From Escherichia phage TH09, in sequence record MT446387.1: 64,000 nt of DNA; one strand, written 5' to 3'. Below are positions 2,998 through 62,079 of this stretch, in pieces. Under the pieces are notes generated by a model, which was not told the DNA's origin, made no database searches, and saw only the letters and a list, made by a program, of their open reading frames with translations. A program made the position numbers and the translations under genes. Within the stretch, counting starts at the first letter, position 1, and each line of letters opens with the position of its first letter.

Positions 2998-5055
2998 ATG
3001 GAACTTATTACAGAATTATTTGACGGCGCTTCGGCGCCGGTTGTTAACTTAAATCCTAAGCATAAAATACCGCAAATTTTTGCTATTCAAGCCGGCGAAG
3101 AAAGTGTGCTTCCTGGATTTAGATTTTGTACATACACCTCTGGCGGTGATACAAATAAAAACGTTAAGCCAGGCGATAAAATGATGCATATCGTAATGAT
3201 AGGTGTCAATGAGAAACTATCGCTCGTTAAACTTAAAAACTTGGGTGGAAATCCAATTGGTGTCATTAATGCGGTTTTTGATACTGCTCTTCAAACAATG
3301 AAACAGTATAAAATTGATGCATGCTTATTCCGCGTACTAAAGAGTAAAACAAATGGCGCAGCTCGTCAAATGCAAGTTATTGCTGACCGTTTAGTACGTA
3401 CTAAAGGAGCAGGTCGATATGCTCTTTTAAAGGAAATCTGGGATTACGATAAAAAGTATGCATATATTATGGTTTACCGTAAAAATGCCAATTTAGAAGA
3501 CATTCCAGGTGTACCTCCTATTTCAACTGAGTTATTCACAAAAGTTGAATCAAAGGTTGGTGATGTTTATGTAGACGTTAAAACAGGTAATGCTGTTCCT
3601 AAAGCTGTTGCTGTTGCTGCTTCTATTGCCTTAGAAAATGATAAGCGCACGGATCAAGCTGTTATTCAGAAAACTAAAATTAGTCGTCGATTAGCAGCAC
3701 AAGCTCAATATTCTACTGTTGATGCTTCACTTCAGGGTGATAGCTTCGCTGCTAAGAAATATCAAGAGTTTGAATCTAAAGTTCCGGTATATAAAGCAGA
3801 AGGACCAATGAACTCCGGGGTTATCCAGATTGGTTCAAACTTTAACAAAGGAGCTATCGGTGGTATGAGAAGTGCTTCTCGTTTTAAATCTAATGATTAT
3901 GAACTAGAAAGTTTCCGAAATCATATTGCATTAGCCCATGCGCGTTTACGTGATCCATCTATCAAGTTGCAGAGCGATATAACATATCAAGGTTCTCAAG
4001 AATATTTAAAGAATAAAGAATTCTTTGATTATAAAACTGATAAAATTTTAAGCGATCTTGCTGACATTAATATTTCTAATAGCTTTGATGTTATTAAGAA
4101 AATTATCAATGATTTAGTTAAAGGTTCTAAAGCTACACCAGATGAAAAGACAGCTATTATTCAATTTGTCATGAATGGCATTTATAAATTGATTAATGAA
4201 TCTGCCGCTCAGGCATATGAATACGCGAGCACCGAAGTAACTCCAAAAGGATTAACTCAAGCTGAATCTGATGTAATTGAAGATTATTGTGCAGATTCAT
4301 ATGTTGAAATGAACTCGTTCCTTTTGGGTAAACCAGATTCTACCCGCGAAGAATATATGGAACGAGCTATTAAACATATTGAGACGCTTGATTCTGCATT
4401 CGCTAAAGGTTCAGTTCTTCCTCCAGGAACTACACTTTACCGTGGACAAGAAGTTACATTTAAAACTTTGCGTCATAACATTGAAAACAAAATGTTCTAT
4501 TTCAAGAACTTCGTATCCACATCGCTTAAACCAAATATCTTCGGTGAGCATGGTAAAAACTATATGGCCTTAGATGATTCCGGCGCAGTATTTTCTGGTG
4601 AAGGAGAAGGTTCCGTTGATGCAGAAGATTTGATGCATATGGGTAGTCATTCTACATATGCTAGTGAAGATGCCGAAACTAGCGTGGGTATGGTAATTAA
4701 AGGAGCTGAGCGAATCAAAGTTATCGTTCCAGGTCATTTATCAGGATTTCCATCAGAAGCTGAAGTTATTCTACCACGTGGAATTTTACTGAAGATTAAT
4801 AAAGTAAGTACGTACTTTATGAAAGAAACTGCTTATAACAAGTATCTAATCGAAGGTACAATCGTTCCTCCTTCTGAACAATTAGAGGAATCAGTATATG
4901 ATGGCGACCATTTGATGGAAACTGGTGAAGTTCGTCCAATGACTGGATTTAATCAATTCCTTGTCGAAGAATCAAAAGAAGAGGAAAACGAAGTTTCTCA
5001 AATCTTAGCTTCTTTGGTTAACATTAACGGAATGTCTAAAAAGTTCAAAATGTAG
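2998..5055 (+). CDS. Alt-like ADP-ribosyltransferase paralog
   Basis: 685-aa ORF starting 4 nt after the alt stop. N-terminal ~220 aa and C-terminal ART region (FYFKNFVSTSL, SEAEVILPRG, YDGDHLMETGEV) are clearly paralogous to the upstream Alt; the middle region is divergent. Confidence 0.8.
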   Translation: MELITELFDGASAPVVNLNPKHKIPQIFAIQAGEESVLPGFRFCTYTSGGDTNKNVKPGDKMMHIVMIGVNEKLSLVKLKNLGGNPIGVINAVFDTALQTMKQYKIDACLFRVLKSKTNGAARQMQVIADRLVRTKGAGRYALLKEIWDYDKKYAYIMVYRKNANLEDIPGVPPISTELFTKVESKVGDVYVDVKTGNAVPKAVAVAASIALENDKRTDQAVIQKTKISRRLAAQAQYSTVDASLQGDSFAAKKYQEFESKVPVYKAEGPMNSGVIQIGSNFNKGAIGGMRSASRFKSNDYELESFRNHIALAHARLRDPSIKLQSDITYQGSQEYLKNKEFFDYKTDKILSDLADINISNSFDVIKKIINDLVKGSKATPDEKTAIIQFVMNGIYKLINESAAQAYEYASTEVTPKGLTQAESDVIEDYCADSYVEMNSFLLGKPDSTREEYMERAIKHIETLDSAFAKGSVLPPGTTLYRGQEVTFKTLRHNIENKMFYFKNFVSTSLKPNIFGEHGKNYMALDDSGAVFSGEGEGSVDAEDLMHMGSHSTYASEDAETSVGMVIKGAERIKVIVPGHLSGFPSEAEVILPRGILLKINKVSTYFMKETAYNKYLIEGTIVPPSEQLEESVYDGDHLMETGEVRPMTGFNQFLVEESKEEENEVSQILASLVNINGMSKKFKM

Positions 5056-5084
5056 TTTACAAGTCCCTCGTGTTGTGTTATAGT
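5055..5084 (+). promoter_or_regulatory. early-type promoter (GTTTAC, 18 nt, TATAGT) with overlapping inverted repeat
   Basis: Sequence match to the T-even early promoter pattern upstream of the 96-aa ORF. Confidence 0.5.
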
Positions 5085-5115
5085 AATCTTACTGACATAA
5101 CATGAGGAACACAAA

Positions 5116-5406
5116 ATGAAATCTTCTTTGCGCTTTTTAGGTCAAGAACTTGTAGTTGAAGGCGTTATTCCTGCTGATAATGCTTTTAATGAAGCAGTTT
5201 ACGATGAATTTATCAAAATTTTTGGAACAGATAAAAAGTTCGGAATTTTTCCTTCTGAAAATTTTTCAAAGCCAGAACAGACTGAAAGCATTTTCCAAGG
5301 TGTAGTAACAGGTAAATTTGAGTCAGAAGCTCCGGTAAAAATTGAAGTTTATATTGAAGACAGTTTAGTTGCTTCAGTTGCTGCTTTTATTTCATTCCGT
5401 AAATAA
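5116..5406 (+). CDS. hypothetical protein (96 aa)
   Basis: ORF preceded by an early-type promoter (GTTTAC, 18 nt, TATAGT) and followed by a bidirectional hairpin. Confidence 0.5.
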   Translation: MKSSLRFLGQELVVEGVIPADNAFNEAVYDEFIKIFGTDKKFGIFPSENFSKPEQTESIFQGVVTGKFESEAPVKIEVYIEDSLVASVAAFISFRK

Positions 5407-55003: not shown

Positions 55004-55077
55004 CTCCGTGTAGCTCAGTTTGGTAGAGCGCCTGATTTGGGATCAGGAGGTCCAAGGTTCAAATCCTTGTATGGAGA
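55004..55077 (+). tRNA. tRNA-Pro (anticodon TGG)
   Basis: Acceptor ctccgtg/tatggag (two G-U pairs), anticodon loop ttTGGga, T-loop ttcaaat. Confidence 0.8.
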
Positions 55078-55079
55078 CT

Positions 55080-55169
55080 GGAGGCGTGGCAGAGTGGTTT
55101 AATGCACCGGTCTTGAAAACCGGCAGTCGCTCCGGCGACTCATAGGTTCAAATCCTATCGCCTCCGCCA
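55080..55169 (+). tRNA. tRNA-Ser (anticodon TGA), type II, CCA encoded
   Basis: Acceptor ggaggcg/cgcctcc, anticodon loop ctTGAaa, long variable arm, T-loop ttcaaat. Confidence 0.85.
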
Positions 55170-55174
55170 GTTTT

Positions 55175-55250
55175 GCTGATTTAGCTCAGTAGGTAGAGCA
55201 ACTCACTTGTAATGAGAAGGTCGGCGGTTCGATTCCGTCAATCAGCACCA
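55175..55250 (+). tRNA. tRNA-Thr (anticodon TGT), CCA encoded
   Basis: Acceptor gctgatt/aatcagc, anticodon loop ctTGTaa, T-loop ttcgatt. Confidence 0.85.
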
Positions 55251-55251
55251 A

Positions 55252-55326
55252 GGCCCTGTAGCTGGAAGGTTCAAGCAAGCGACTCATAATCGCCAGATGG
55301 TGGTTCAATTCCACCCAGGGCCACCA
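55252..55326 (+). tRNA. tRNA with anticodon CAT, probably the AUA-reading tRNA-Ile of T-even phages (could be Met)
   Basis: Acceptor ggccctg/cagggcc, anticodon loop ctCATaa, T-loop ttcaatt. Confidence 0.75.
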
Positions 55327-55339
55327 AATTAAGAATTAA

Positions 55340-55426
55340 GGGGAGTTATCCCGTAGAGGTAGCGGTGTGGACTGTAAATCCATTGTCATTGCGACTCGGG
55401 TGGTTCGACTCCATCACTCCCCACCA
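55340..55426 (+). tRNA. tRNA-Tyr (anticodon GTA), type II, CCA encoded
   Basis: Acceptor ggggagt/actcccc, anticodon loop ctGTAaa, long variable arm; the D-arm fold is slightly atypical. Confidence 0.7.
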
Positions 55427-55430
55427 ATTT

Positions 55431-55505
55431 GGATGTGTAGCTCAATGGCAGAGCGATCGCCTGTTAAGCGATTGGTTATAGGTTCGAATCCTATCACGTC
55501 CGCCA
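55431..55505 (+). tRNA. tRNA-Asn (anticodon GTT), CCA encoded
   Basis: Acceptor ggatgtg/cacgtcc, anticodon stem atcgc/gcgat with loop ctGTTaa, T-loop ttcgaat. Confidence 0.8.
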
Positions 55506-55509
55506 AATA

Positions 55510-55585
55510 CGAGGCATAGCTCAGAAGGAAGAGCAAGGACCTTCTAAGTCCTGGGTCGTAGGTTCGATCCCTACTGCCTCGACCA
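55510..55585 (+). tRNA. tRNA-Arg (anticodon TCT), CCA encoded
   Basis: Acceptor cgaggca/tgcctcg, anticodon stem aggac/gtcct with loop ctTCTaa, T-loop ttcgatc. Confidence 0.85.
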
Positions 55586-58093: not shown

Positions 58094-58624
58094 ATGTCTC
58101 TTTATACTGAACTGAATGAAACTTCCGAAAGATCTTTTGATGGTATTTTATCAATAATGCAAAAGCAGGTATTAGAACAGCTTAGTGAAGCCGCAAGCAA
58201 CGGACATAAGGCTTGTCGAATCCCAAGCCCACATCGTCGCCTGTATGAACGCCCTCTTATTAATTGGCTAGAAAGCGAAGGTCTTACGGTTAAGATTTGT
58301 CCTGCCAAATTTGATGTTCCACGTATTCTTAATATTTACTGGGATAAACCGATTGAGAAACCGATTGAGAAAAGTGACCCTTGGGTTGTTAATGTAAAAA
58401 CATGTGATAATGGATGCTCACTTGAGGTGTCTGCTGTAATTAAAGGCACTCACGGTGAAAAATCGTGGGGTTGGCCTGGTAAAAATAAAGAAATCGTGTT
58501 AAGTGTAAAAGCTACTAGTATTAGTACTCCTATAGCTAAAAGCATTATTAATGCTGCTATCGATGAAGCTGAACGAATTTGTAAAATTAAAAATAGTTTA
58601 CATCTCTCAAATAATGGGATATAA
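58094..58624 (+). CDS. hypothetical protein (176 aa) with internal KPIEKPIEK repeat
   Basis: ORF with GAGGAA ribosome-binding site; 12-bp tandem duplication at 58347..58370. Confidence 0.5.
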   Translation: MSLYTELNETSERSFDGILSIMQKQVLEQLSEAASNGHKACRIPSPHRRLYERPLINWLESEGLTVKICPAKFDVPRILNIYWDKPIEKPIEKSDPWVVNVKTCDNGCSLEVSAVIKGTHGEKSWGWPGKNKEIVLSVKATSISTPIAKSIINAAIDEAERICKIKNSLHLSNNGI

Positions 58625-58667
58625 TTCTTCCACAGATTTTAAATCTTAATCAACCTAAGGAAATACT

Positions 58668-59261
58668 ATGAACACACTGAAGAAAATTGTTGAGTTTATT
58701 CGCACTAAACTTGGTTCTGCTATGGCTAAAAATTTATCTGTTGAAGAACAGTATACTGCTGCAGCAGCAAAACTACTTGATAAAATTAAAGATCTAAAAA
58801 CTGCTTCTATTAAATCTATTAATGAAGAAAAACGTATTCGTGAACTTGTTATCGAAAAGAATCGACAAGCCGAATCAAAAGAGCGTGAAATTCGTAAACT
58901 TCTTTCCGAAGGTCAAGATGTAACAATGCATGCTAAACTCGGTTTACTATATCGCCGAACAGCTGAGCAGTTGACTACTAAAGCTGACGGTTATGCTGAA
59001 ATGCGAATTGAAATCGCCAAGAAAGTAGTTGAGTTAGATGATGCCCGTCAAGAACTTGCAGTTAAATTGGAATATATCCGTGAAACTCGTGCGGCAAATG
59101 CCCTTGGAATTAGTACTGCCGATGATGTAGTTGAAATTGCAGCACTGACTAAGGTTGATATTGAAGATACCCTTGCTCGAGTTGAAACCTTTAATGGTAA
59201 TATTTCTGGGGTTGAAACTACCTCTGCCGATGTTCAGGAATACATTAATTCTCTGAAATAA
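58668..59261 (+). CDS. coiled-coil protein with PspA/IM30-like character (197 aa), tentative
   Basis: Strongly helical, charged heptad-like sequence; segments resemble PspA-family proteins as recalled (for example ...[11 protein letters not shown]...). Not verified by search. Confidence 0.45.
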
Positions 59262-59275
59262 TGATAAGGGGCTTC

Positions 59276-59291
59276 GGCCCCTATTACTTGG
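59276..59291 (+). terminator. stable UUCG hairpin without a clear U-tract (possible RNA-stability or processing element)
   Basis: aggggcTTCGgcccct between the ORFs at 58668 and 59303. Confidence 0.4.
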
Positions 59292-59302
59292 AGTAAATAG
59301 GA

Positions 59303-59908
59303 ATGAAAATGCAAAGTGATTTCAATTCAATGTTTGAAGAGTTCCAAAGACAAGTTGATGTTCCAGACCAATTACTAAATGCTCTTAAACGCATGGCAGA
59401 AGGACGTAATTACTATTGGAGCTCTTCATATGAAACTGATGAAAGTCTTTCTGGATTTTATAAAGGTAAAAAGTCTTTAATACGTCCTGGAATACTCATT
59501 AAAAGTATTGAATCAATTCATTCATTGACGTGTGATTTTGATGTTGAATTTACTGATTTCATTTCTCCTGAATGGACAGTTTGTTATTTAAACGACGATT
59601 ATGATTATCTTGGCGTTTATAGTTTAAGTGACGCATGGTTTAAACGTAATTTACAAAAGTCAAATTTGTTCTATATTGATACTACGGTAAAATTTCAGGG
59701 AAAGAAATATTTCTTTACTCTTATAGTTGACTCTGAAACAAAATATGAAAATAAGCGTATTCTTAGTAAAAAGAATATCTTAACTATCGTTGATGATCTT
59801 TTTGATAAATTCGTGGAAAATCCTAATTTTGAAAGCGATTTATTATTAGAAAAATTTGTTAAGGAATGTAGAGAATATGTCAAAGCCATCACTATACCTT
59901 CCAAGTAA
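59303..59908 (+). CDS. hypothetical protein (201 aa) sharing a C-terminal tail motif with the downstream membrane proteins
   Basis: ORF; C-terminus ...EKFVKECREYVK; its 3' end carries the ribosome-binding site of the next gene. Confidence 0.5.
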   Translation: MKMQSDFNSMFEEFQRQVDVPDQLLNALKRMAEGRNYYWSSSYETDESLSGFYKGKKSLIRPGILIKSIESIHSLTCDFDVEFTDFISPEWTVCYLNDDYDYLGVYSLSDAWFKRNLQKSNLFYIDTTVKFQGKKYFFTLIVDSETKYENKRILSKKNILTIVDDLFDKFVENPNFESDLLLEKFVKECREYVKAITIPSK

Positions 59909-60269
59909 ACCTGTGAAGTATGAACTAAAGCGTCAGCTAATTCCTACTGATGTATTAATAGGTCCTGTGACAGCTATATCATTTGTAATTCTATTGATTG
60001 TTGGAATGGTTATAGACTTTATGACTGATATTGAATCTGGCGTAATATTTTTGTTAGTATTAATTCTTCCATTAGTAGTTCCATTTTTATTGGTACCTGT
60101 AAATTGGGTAGGATATTGGTATCAAGGAAGGCATTATCGTAAACGTGTACGTGAATGGAAAGCTCAGTGTAAAAAGATTAAAAAGGAACACCAGCTTAAA
60201 CTAAATATGTATGAATTTAATGAAATTATGAAATTTGTTAAGGAATCACGATGCAAAAGCCAAAACTAA
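59877..60269 (+). CDS. small membrane protein, paralog A (about 130 aa, two predicted TM helices)
   Basis: Track ORF starts at a TTG; ATG at 59877 gives MSKPSLYLPSKP...; hydrophobic core then basic tail ending FVKESRCK. Confidence 0.55.
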   Translation: MSKPSLYLPSKPVKYELKRQLIPTDVLIGPVTAISFVILLIVGMVIDFMTDIESGVIFLLVLILPLVVPFLLVPVNWVGYWYQGRHYRKRVREWKAQCKKIKKEHQLKLNMYEFNEIMKFVKESRCKSQN

Positions 60270-60625
60270 ATAAAGTCAAATATTCTTTTTCTGAGTCATT
60301 TTTAATTTTTGCTGTGGCGTTGGCTGCAGCTCTTGCTGGTAGTCTTATTGGATTAATGATTGACTGTATTATTTTAAACATCCGCAGTAACGTCAGCGGT
60401 ATAGTAGATATAATAGAAGTTTGGAGTGAACTTCATTATACTATAGCGATTTCATTATTTTCATTCTTTGGTATTATTTTATATTTTCATTATGATAATT
60501 TTAAAATAAATTGGCAAAGAAAAAAGGATTACAAAATACAATTAAAAGAATATAATAACTACATGTCTTATATTGAAAATGAATCAATGAAAGAATTCGT
60601 GAATGATTGTAGGAAAATCAAATGA
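60251..60625 (+). CDS. small membrane protein, paralog B (124 aa, two predicted TM helices)
   Basis: ATG preceded by TAAGGAA; hydrophobic core then basic tail ending FVNDCRKIK. Confidence 0.55.
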   Translation: MQKPKLNKVKYSFSESFLIFAVALAAALAGSLIGLMIDCIILNIRSNVSGIVDIIEVWSELHYTIAISLFSFFGIILYFHYDNFKINWQRKKDYKIQLKEYNNYMSYIENESMKEFVNDCRKIK

Positions 60626-61091
60626 TTTTAAAAACTCGCTGGTATGATTTAGATGATGGGGACGATGGCATTTCAGTCGATAGAGTTGACTGGAGCGGCT
60701 GTTCTGAAGATACAAAGAAACGATTAATTAGGGAGTTTAGAATGGGATATCAAGCAGTTAAGCCATCTACTGTAACAGATGATAAATTCGTGTGTATTCA
60801 AAATGGTCGTGCTAAGTTAACGAACGCTGATTGGTTCACAGATAAGAAGGTTATTCTGTGGTATATTATTAGTTTTCCTGTGACATCATTTGTATTTTGC
60901 TTCTTTGGAGAAAGTCCAGTAGGCAGAACGGAAGATTGGATTCTTTTAATTATACTTGTTAATATTTTTACAGCAGCAGTACTATCAGGAATATGGTGCG
61001 TGTTCATTGAAATGCCATGGCGGTTACGTAGGCAGCAAAAGATTTTTGATGAAAAGAAATATACTCAAAATTTAAATAATTTTATCACTGA

Positions 61092-61110
<19 letters not shown>
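60622..61110 (+). CDS. small membrane protein, paralog C (162 aa; soluble N-domain plus two predicted TM helices)
   Basis: ATG overlaps the upstream stop (ATGA); tail ending FITECRKLK. Confidence 0.55.

Positions 61111-62079
<969 letters not shown>

Follow-up and report, generated by a model that had tools for sequence, protein, structure and literature searches.

The described process closest to crossover at the gene joints reported here is the modular shuffling mediated by early promoter-stem-loop elements (PeSLs) in the hyperplastic regions of T4-type phages, in which, as described by Arbiol et al. (2010; PMC2839356), short repeated control elements flank non-essential genes and recombine to add or remove whole genes. 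T4 is also known to recombine at very short homologies, or minihomologies (PMC8262927). We studied four overlapping genes, the homologues of T4 e.5, e.4, e.3 and e.2, at positions 59,303 to 61,110 of a 64,000-nucleotide stretch of DNA from Escherichia phage TH09 (record MT446387.1; the whole stretch is referred to as the window). Three of these genes encode small proteins with two predicted transmembrane (TM) helices. Class II holins also have two transmembrane domains (TMDs), with both termini in the cytoplasm (N-in/C-in) and a charged C-terminus. To what is known of the four genes we add the paralogy of e.4 and e.3, a protein-level tail signature that they have in common with the e.5 family, and repeats at the coding joints that lie behind the exact gain and loss of gene cassettes. 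Our analyses confirmed that the array first noticed in the TH09 sequence was real and non-random, and that it reached well past one phage.

The 1.8-kb interval was 100% identical to Citrobacter phage vB_CroM_CrRp10 (Tequatrovirus) and had ~90% nucleotide identity to T4. Synteny and annotation indicated that its four open reading frames (ORFs) were the orthologues of T4 e.5, e.4, e.3 and e.2 (UniProt entries P39223, P39222, P32274 and P32273, respectively), with the gene order (e.6, e.5, e.4, e.3, e.2, nudE, e (lysozyme), denV) and the overlaps as in T4. All four had full-length matches to PHROG families: e.5 to phrog_2607 (E=1.2e-107), e.4 to phrog_2604 (E=3.6e-71 over 1-130/130), e.3 to phrog_2330 (E=9.7e-62 over 1-122/122) and e.2 to phrog_2203 (E=9e-78 over 1-166/166). 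In precomputed assignments PF26873 was on 99/99 e.4 homologues and PF26896 on all e.2 homologues; e.4 had no match in the Pfam copy that was scanned, presumably because the PF26873 model is absent from that copy. The e.3 homologues (n=45) were all Tequatrovirus-like. The block was also present in Mosig-, Gapriver-, Dhaka-, Jiaoda-, Moon- and Roskildevirus. The genes themselves are already known as T4 e.2-e.5, and T4 records label e.4, e.3 and e.2 "conserved hypothetical, predicted membrane protein". The original prediction, made from the letters of the window, had not recognised them; its boundaries for the four ORFs were exact and are those given here:

59303..59908, plus strand: e.5 homologue, 201 aa, soluble, with a match to phrog_2607
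59877..60269, plus strand: e.4 homologue, 130 aa, a predicted two-TM hairpin; its N-terminal peptide is conserved, a basic stretch adjoins the membrane and FVKESR is the tail
60251..60625, plus strand: e.3 homologue, 124 aa, a predicted two-TM hairpin and full-length e.4 paralogue with the tail EFVNDCRKIK
60622..61110, plus strand: e.2 homologue, 162 aa, a conserved 75-aa N-domain predicted to be cytoplasmic, then a predicted two-TM hairpin and the tail

The soluble e.5 protein and the three membrane proteins end in a common motif, as had been proposed, and in a six-frame translation of the window this motif was confined to the ends of these four genes. The pattern F[VI]x[ED][SC]R[CK] occurred three times and F[VI]x[ED]CR also three times (shuffle expectation 0.04 and 0.09, respectively), with all matches 2-11 residues ahead of the stops of the four genes. 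The 7-residue pattern that was initially proposed stood in part. Its core, F-[IV]-x-[ED]-x-R, is real, but the full pattern mixes this core with residues forced by gene overlap, because the Cys of the e.4 "SRC" sits in the start region of e.3 (cgATGc). A Cys occupies core position 5 in e.5, e.3 and e.2, and a broader signature can be written as F-[IV]-x-x-C-[RK]. In the C-terminal helix of e.5 the motif FVKECR is followed by a second, degenerate copy of the tail, EYVKAIT. The first copy also carries the Shine-Dalgarno sequence (SD) of the next gene:

59855..59872, plus strand: e.5 tail FVKECR, whose K-E codons (AAGGAA) are the SD for e.4

A survey of tails at 26 gene ends in nine genera indicated that the motif is under constraint as protein. 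Among 11 e.5-like proteins (nine genera, 13-49% identity) the only invariant columns were Met1, F185 and C189; the Jiaodavirus member matched phrog_2607 with E=9.7e-10, and PHROG cross-hits confirmed that these cross-genus proteins belong to one family. Biquartavirus (Aeromonas) and Pseudotevenvirus have kept the tails LFVDYCR and KFIHSCK though the next gene begins 89-106 nt downstream, and the motif is kept in the e.5 of Dhaka-, Jiaoda- and Moonvirus although the SD falls outside it. The F, I/V, C and R of the tail use all synonymous codon families, Arg being encoded by both AGR and CGN. In the 101-aa protein of HX01, the K-E codons of FIKECR are AAAGAA and do not form an SD; the R-G-K codons that follow supply it. 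Based on the invariant F and C, the distant next genes, the SDs outside the motif and the variation of synonymous codons, we consider the tail a protein-level signature and not a by-product of the ribosome-binding site (RBS) alone; the possibility, named in the original prediction, that it might reflect a mere RBS-coding constraint was not borne out. The tails also track orthology, being of the type EFVKE[SIVM]R in e.4 and xFIKEC[RK], with the Cys kept, in e.3, and the array is therefore old within the Tevenvirinae.

The three membrane proteins had been described as paralogous. For e.4 and e.3 this was upheld by cross-genus profiles, but the full-length similarity of e.2 did not reach significance. 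Pairwise BLASTP with single sequences of e.5, e.4, e.3 and e.2 was not significant (E=0.2-0.3), nor was hhalign with alignments of Tequatrovirus sequences only (probability 1-7%). Profiles were then made cross-genus by adding the syntenic genes of Mosig-, Gapriver-, Dhaka-, Jiaoda- and Moonvirus, and with these e.4 aligned to e.3 over its full length (94.6% probability, E=6.7e-8, 113-118 columns). BLASTP intermediates bridged the two families with E=4.6e-4 to 0.002 (Gapriver e.3 versus e.4, 4.6e-4; Dhaka e.3 versus T4 e.4, 0.001), and e.3 matched the PHROG e.4 family with E=0.008. Both e.4 and e.3 have the peptide M-x-[KR]-P-x-L at the N-terminus, and they also have in common the two TM helices, the basic stretch and the tail. 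Together, these alignments demonstrated at the level of sequence that e.4 and e.3 are ancient, full-length paralogues.

The relationship of e.2 to this pair is of another order. In hhalign comparisons of e.2 with e.4 and e.3 the 14-residue tail alone aligned (25-40% probability). A 101-aa protein of Mosigvirus and a 98-aa protein of Jiaodavirus matched the e.2 family, phrog_2203, with E=0.0017 and 0.0078, respectively, and the indirect profile links of e.2 through these two proteins (Mos_101 and Jia_98) and phrog_944 were weak (E=0.001-0.008). At the nucleotide level, the starts of the first TM helix (TM1) in e.4 and e.2 share a microhomology of 10+9 identical nt with a 6-nt indel (p=0.022):

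59963..59990, plus strand: start of e.4 TM1 (PVTAISFV), TCCTGTGACA[GCTATA]TCATTTGTA, shared with e.2 TM1
60876..60897, plus strand: start of e.2 TM1 (PVTSFV), which pairs with e.4 TM1 in the microhomology

A natural hybrid in phages UFV05 and UFV11 (P0098) consists of e.4 residues 1-32 fused to e.2 from TM1 to its end; the fusion point is exactly at this microhomology and the two-helix architecture is retained. The tail, the TM1 microhomology, the hybrid and the profile links together tie e.2 weakly to the family. A search of 1.84 billion representative sequences with a hidden Markov model of the e.4 profile found seven proteins, all of them e.4 variants or chimeras, and no member of the e.3 or e.2 families.

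The four genes are joined to one another, and to nudE, by short overlaps (e.5/e.4, 32 nt; e.4/e.3, 19 nt; e.3/e.2 and e.2/nudE, ATGA). That the last codons of each gene encode the RBS of the next, and that the joints are repeated, was verified in the sequence for two types of repeat:

59852..59867, plus strand: 16-nt junction repeat AAATTTGTTAAGGAAT, copy 1, at the e.5 tail joint
60231..60246, plus strand: 16-nt junction repeat AAATTTGTTAAGGAAT, copy 2, in which the e.4 tail is encoded together with the SD of e.3 (ATG at 60251)
60608..60625, plus strand: junction repeat TGTAGGAAAATCAAATGA, in which C-R-K codons are the SD and an ATGA stop/start overlap leads onto e.2
61093..61110, plus strand: junction repeat TGCAGGAAATTAAAATGA, with an SD and ATGA overlap onto nudE; the crossover partner of 60608-60625 in phages without e.2

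The two copies of AAATTTGTTAAGGAAT are identical (p=0.008 by codon shuffling), and the other two joints have the consensus TG[TC]AGGAAA[AT]T[CT]AAATGA. The SD of the next gene is formed by K-E codons (AAGGAA/G) in most members and by C-R-K codons (TGYAGGAAA) in e.3 and e.2 of Tequatrovirus, and lies outside the motif in several e.5-like genes. The ~25 nt that code for the tail also hold the SD and ATG from which the next gene is translated, so translation is expected to pass in a chain along the array. These features of the sequence supported a tightly coupled array in which the joints were copied along with the genes.

The same joints mark the ends of genes that have been gained or lost. PP01 has no e.2, and its e.3 ends in GATTGCAGGAAATTAAAATGAAAACA; here the e.3 tail runs as far as TGCAGGAAA and then gives way to the e.2/nudE joint. 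T2 and RB32 matched only through the end of e.3 and then at nudE, which, judged from the extents of the matches, fits a deletion of the PP01 type, and e.2 was likely excised in both as in PP01. It was present in ~440/504 related records. Gaprivervirus VR26 has the order e.6/e.5/e.4/e.3, and in Dhakavirus AnYang the 3' end of e.5 matches that of VR26 to AAAGAGGTTCAAAATG and then continues as the e.4/e.3 joint; from this alignment, e.4 is precisely excised in AnYang relative to VR26. We therefore found two independent exact excisions in the sequences compared, that of e.2 in Tequatrovirus and that of e.4 in Dhakavirus. By these alignments the repeated joints are sites of crossover, where a whole gene can enter or leave with frame and coupling intact.

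Changes within genes were also found. One e.4 variant (P0195) has both TM helices removed in frame, and another protein (P0198) is a fragment of a Mosigvirus e.3 fused to the C-terminus of e.4; both of these natural chimeras agree with crossover within the array. Wild-type T4 has a 1-nt deletion in e.2 relative to CrRp10 and most relatives, which yields an annotated ORF of 102 aa and an overlapping, unannotated ORF of 63 aa (4734-5042 and 5030-5221 of the T4 locus, L003, corresponding to 60622-61110 of the window). The 63-aa ORF (MDRIGDW...) carries the second helix (TM2) and the tail and is ATGA-coupled to nudE. The 102-aa form of e.2 also occurs in other phages (clusters P0193 and P0194).

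Hydropathy analysis (Kyte-Doolittle, 19-residue window) agreed with the prediction of two TM helices in each small protein, with peaks of 2.6 and 3.1 in e.4, 2.5 and 1.8 in e.3, and 2.1 and 2.4 in e.2; e.5 and NudE had zero peaks of this kind. Charge counts indicated that the N-termini are net-positive (the e.2 N-domain has net 0), the C-termini strongly positive and the loops acidic, and from this pattern N-in/C-in hairpins are predicted for e.4, e.3 and e.2. The three are thus predicted to be small inner-membrane hairpins with both ends cytoplasmic. Within families, identity was 85-98% in the cytoplasmic parts and 51-80% in the TM hairpin (51% in that of e.4), and the predicted periplasmic loop was short and among the least conserved parts. 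The 75-aa N-terminal domain of e.2 is conserved, and our searches detected no relatives of it. In low-confidence AlphaFold2 (AF2) models the e.2 tail would end a long helix that continues from TM2, and the e.5 tail would lie within the terminal helix.

The genes of the array are expressed early and are dispensable. In published data for T4 (PMC9697503), the RNAs of e.2-e.6 are classed as early, and mass spectrometry detected each of the five proteins, early to middle in infection. A sequenced T4 clone, T4_583L, is without e.7-e.3 and the 5' half of e.2. Two features of the window upstream of e.5 may bear on this transcription:

58597..58625, plus strand: match to a sigma-70-type (T4 early-like) promoter, TTTACA-17-TATAAT, 11/12 consensus positions, on consensus match alone
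59267..59282, plus strand: GGGGC-UUCG-GCCCC hairpin between e.6 and e.5, minimum free energy -13.1 kcal/mol, z = -1.8, with no T-run after it

The promoter match, upstream of e.6, is the probable start of an early transcript from e.6 to nudE, and the UUCG hairpin, rather than terminating transcription, may serve in RNA stability or processing. No promoter or terminator was found between e.5 and nudE. Late-promoter boxes (TATAAATA) occurred only at 61551 and 61564, in tandem directly before e (window 61551-61571), and there was none inside the array or elsewhere before 61551. A scan for MotA boxes was uninformative, with 333 loose matches, and Rfam identified no RNA within the array.

Sequence searches of Pfam, PHROGs, NCBIfam, PADLOC and the PDB identified no characterised system that matches the array, in agreement with the original prediction. 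None of the four proteins had a meaningful match in Pfam, NCBIfam or PDB sequences, PADLOC-DB defence profiles gave only noise (E>0.02), and a literature search by gene name and UniProt accession found no functional study of e.2-e.5.

The explanation that we favor, and to which we give an even chance of being correct, is that e.6-e.5-e.4-e.3-e.2-nudE is an early accessory operon of a T4-type phage in which membrane hairpins serve as anchors, a shared tail serves for docking and the coupled joints are crossover sites. The conserved cytoplasmic parts would be the N-terminal peptide, the basic juxtamembrane stretch and the C-terminal helix ending F-[IV]-x-[ED]-[C/x]-[RK], and e.2 would be a third protein of the same build with an extra N-terminal domain. 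We interpret the variable TM hairpins as mainly anchors that present this common helix, because the cytoplasmic parts are conserved, the hairpin is the most variable part and the same tail is found on the soluble e.5. The tail would then be a shared docking or oligomerisation helix. Early in infection it would bring soluble e.5 and the anchors together on the cytoplasmic side of the inner membrane, either by direct binding between them or through one partner that they have in common. We infer from these patterns of conservation that the tail docks, that such a complex exists and that it may act on the host membrane.

Several observations weigh against this explanation. Full-length or TM-region homology of e.2 to e.4 and e.3 was not significant, and the tail is not uniform, the e.4 lineage being Cys-less in all genera (S/I/V/M). 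Conservation of the tail is partly forced by dual coding with the SD and N-terminus of the next gene. Any complex cannot strictly need e.2, as its loss, truncation or frameshift is tolerated in several lineages. The AF2 models were too poor for use (pLDDT 50 for e.2 with an 18-sequence alignment and 45 for e.5 as a single sequence).

The same dual coding gives rise to an alternative in which the tail has no function as protein, and would be a junction cassette of SD and next start, copied by recombination at gene boundaries, with the shared residues a by-product of the RBS and of hitch-hiking. Most array members do have the SD within the motif, 16 nt are identical between the joints of e.5 and e.4, excisions at joints were exact, and in e.5 and e.4 the codons that follow the motif also encode the conserved N-termini of e.4 and e.3, respectively. 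We nevertheless consider this alternative unlikely, since apart from Met1 the F and C are the sole invariant residues of the e.5 family, the motif persists where the next gene is 89-106 nt away or its SD is outside the motif, and its codons vary synonymously, with HX01 encoding FIKECR through the non-SD AAAGAA. A role in the host range of the phage can also be envisaged, in which each membrane protein neutralises a different membrane-associated defence or abortive-infection effector of the host, the TM hairpins set the specificity, and gain and loss of genes reflect an arms race. Such a role would suit genes that are accessory, early, dispensable and located in a hyperplastic region, their polymorphic presence and several natural chimeras, and a TM hairpin that is hypervariable between conserved termini. 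The neighboring T4 accessory genes include ipIII and nrdC.5, which act in host range or against defences (PMC9391042), but the e.x genes are unmentioned in that T4 anti-defence paper and have no match in PADLOC or among other families. Further, TM segments often evolve fast where no arms race is involved, and we judge this counter-defence role improbable.

We regard as decidedly unlikely that the three membrane proteins are holin/antiholin-like or Imm/Sp-like and act on the envelope to control lysis or exclude superinfecting phage, a role that would account for their place directly ahead of nudE and e. Their two TM helices, predicted N-in/C-in topology and charged C-terminus are as in class II holins, they are early membrane proteins as are Imm and Sp, and in Tequatrovirus they are encoded close to e. 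Their RNA is early, however, and their protein early to middle, whereas e has its own late promoters; searches of Pfam, PHROGs and NCBIfam gave no match to profiles of holins, Imm or other characterised families; a T4 clone is known that has neither e.7-e.3 nor the 5' half of e.2; and four other genera do not keep the genes next to nudE and e. The early expression, the lack of profile matches and this non-conserved adjacency disfavor a lysis or holin role. An exclusion protein acting in the periplasm is a poor fit as the conserved parts are predicted to be cytoplasmic, the periplasmic loop is short and poorly conserved, and variation is greatest in the TM hairpin and loop.

The array is flanked in the window by the following genes:

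58668..59261, plus strand: e.6 homologue, 197 aa, helical/coiled-coil, at the head of the conserved block of e.6, e.5 and the membrane proteins
61107..61547, plus strand: nudE (Nudix hydrolase), translationally coupled to e.2, at the end of the array

In TH09 the array is, as had been noted, just upstream of nudE (ATG at 61107) and the lysozyme gene, an adjacency that is not kept in Mosig-, Gapriver-, Dhaka- and Moonvirus. The longest nudE ORF begins at an ATG at 61092 (MQEIKMKT...); the annotated, conserved and ATGA-coupled start is that at 61107. Minus-strand ORFs beneath the array were of <=71 aa. An ORF of 176 aa (phrog_6869) at 58094-58624 lies between the e.7 and e.6 homologues, where in T4 e.7 abuts e.6; it resembles a cassette insertion, because T4 has no counterpart there and the promoter-like site of e.6 is within the 3' end of the ORF. 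Seven tRNA genes are clustered upstream of the e.x block (window 55004-55582). In public records some e.4 and e.3 homologues are named "sulfurtransferase" or "DNA primase" and some e.6 homologues "host specificity protein" (proteins P0010, P0019, P0034, P0112, P0127 and P0130, and hits H106 and H109). These names look like propagated mis-annotations, as no NCBIfam, Pfam or PHROGs profile supports them.

A second tandem array follows e.3 in Mosig-, Gapriver-, Dhaka- and Moonvirus and is absent from the window. It comprises 3-5 small soluble paralogues that all end W-[VI]-S-S-S-x-x-C (L005 4230-5024, L006 3664-4452, L011 5022-6264 and L008 5566-6335). Its stop codons are embedded within the SD of the next gene (TGCTAAGGAA), so it is another family in which tail and joint are repeated.

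The e.6 gene was conserved in ~1,100 phage records (1099) across the Straboviridae. With an 8-sequence e.6 profile the best PDB match was Vipp1/IM30 (8qfv), a weak one (E=0.025, 1-140 aligned to 1-142), and in the same register the e.6 orthologue of EC-F1 matched Pfam PspA_IM30 (PF04012) with E=4.6e-4 and 20.3 bits, under the 33.9-bit cut-off. The Vipp1 match was gone with a 10-sequence e.6 profile, and hhalign of e.6 against E. coli PspA gave 0.7%. Assignment of e.6 as a PspA/Vipp1 homologue was thus not robust, being lost with a broader profile and against PspA, and we take it as no more than a tentative lead. One could speculate that e.6, e.5 and the tail-bearing hairpins are a phage Psp-like module for membrane maintenance, in which e.6, as a divergent PspA/Vipp1 of the ESCRT-III superfamily, would be recruited to the inner membrane via the F-x-x-x-C-R tail helices of e.5, e.4, e.3 and e.2, and the module would keep this membrane energised at an early stage of infection or would oppose abortive-infection effectors that disrupt membranes. 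We think it very unlikely indeed that this is the case. The hairpins do resemble PspB and PspC, by analogy only, in being small inner-membrane proteins that are encoded beside a helical protein (e.6 here, PspA there) and predicted to present cytoplasmic helices; they differ in having no PspB or PspC domain match in Pfam or NCBIfam.

With these findings, four still-unassigned early genes of the best-studied virulent phage become a single testable unit with a defined motif, and one invariant C-terminal signature joins the soluble e.5 family and the membrane hairpins across at least nine genera. If the tail is indeed a docking helix, it offers a handle for finding the partner of the module and its role at the host membrane. 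The TH09 locus differs from T4 itself in that e.2 is intact here (162 aa) and is split by a 1-nt deletion in wild-type T4. The size class and predicted N-in/C-in two-TMD topology of e.4, e.3 and e.2 are those of class II holins, but the array differs from these in being early and not late, without a profile match, dispensable for plaques and not within a conserved lysis cassette. Like Imm and Sp of T4, its membrane proteins are early, small, membrane-embedded and non-essential; they have no sequence or profile similarity to either, and their conserved surfaces are predicted to be cytoplasmic. The likeness to PeSL-mediated shuffling is in the insertion and deletion of whole genes between repeated joints, as in the excisions of e.2 and e.4. 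The PeSLs are intergenic and consist of an early promoter and a terminator stem-loop, whereas the joints here consist of a coding tail, an SD and an ATG, in frame and coupled. Crossover at repeated coding joints complements the intergenic PeSL mechanism as a compact route by which genes can be added to or dropped from T4-type genomes with frame and coupling preserved.

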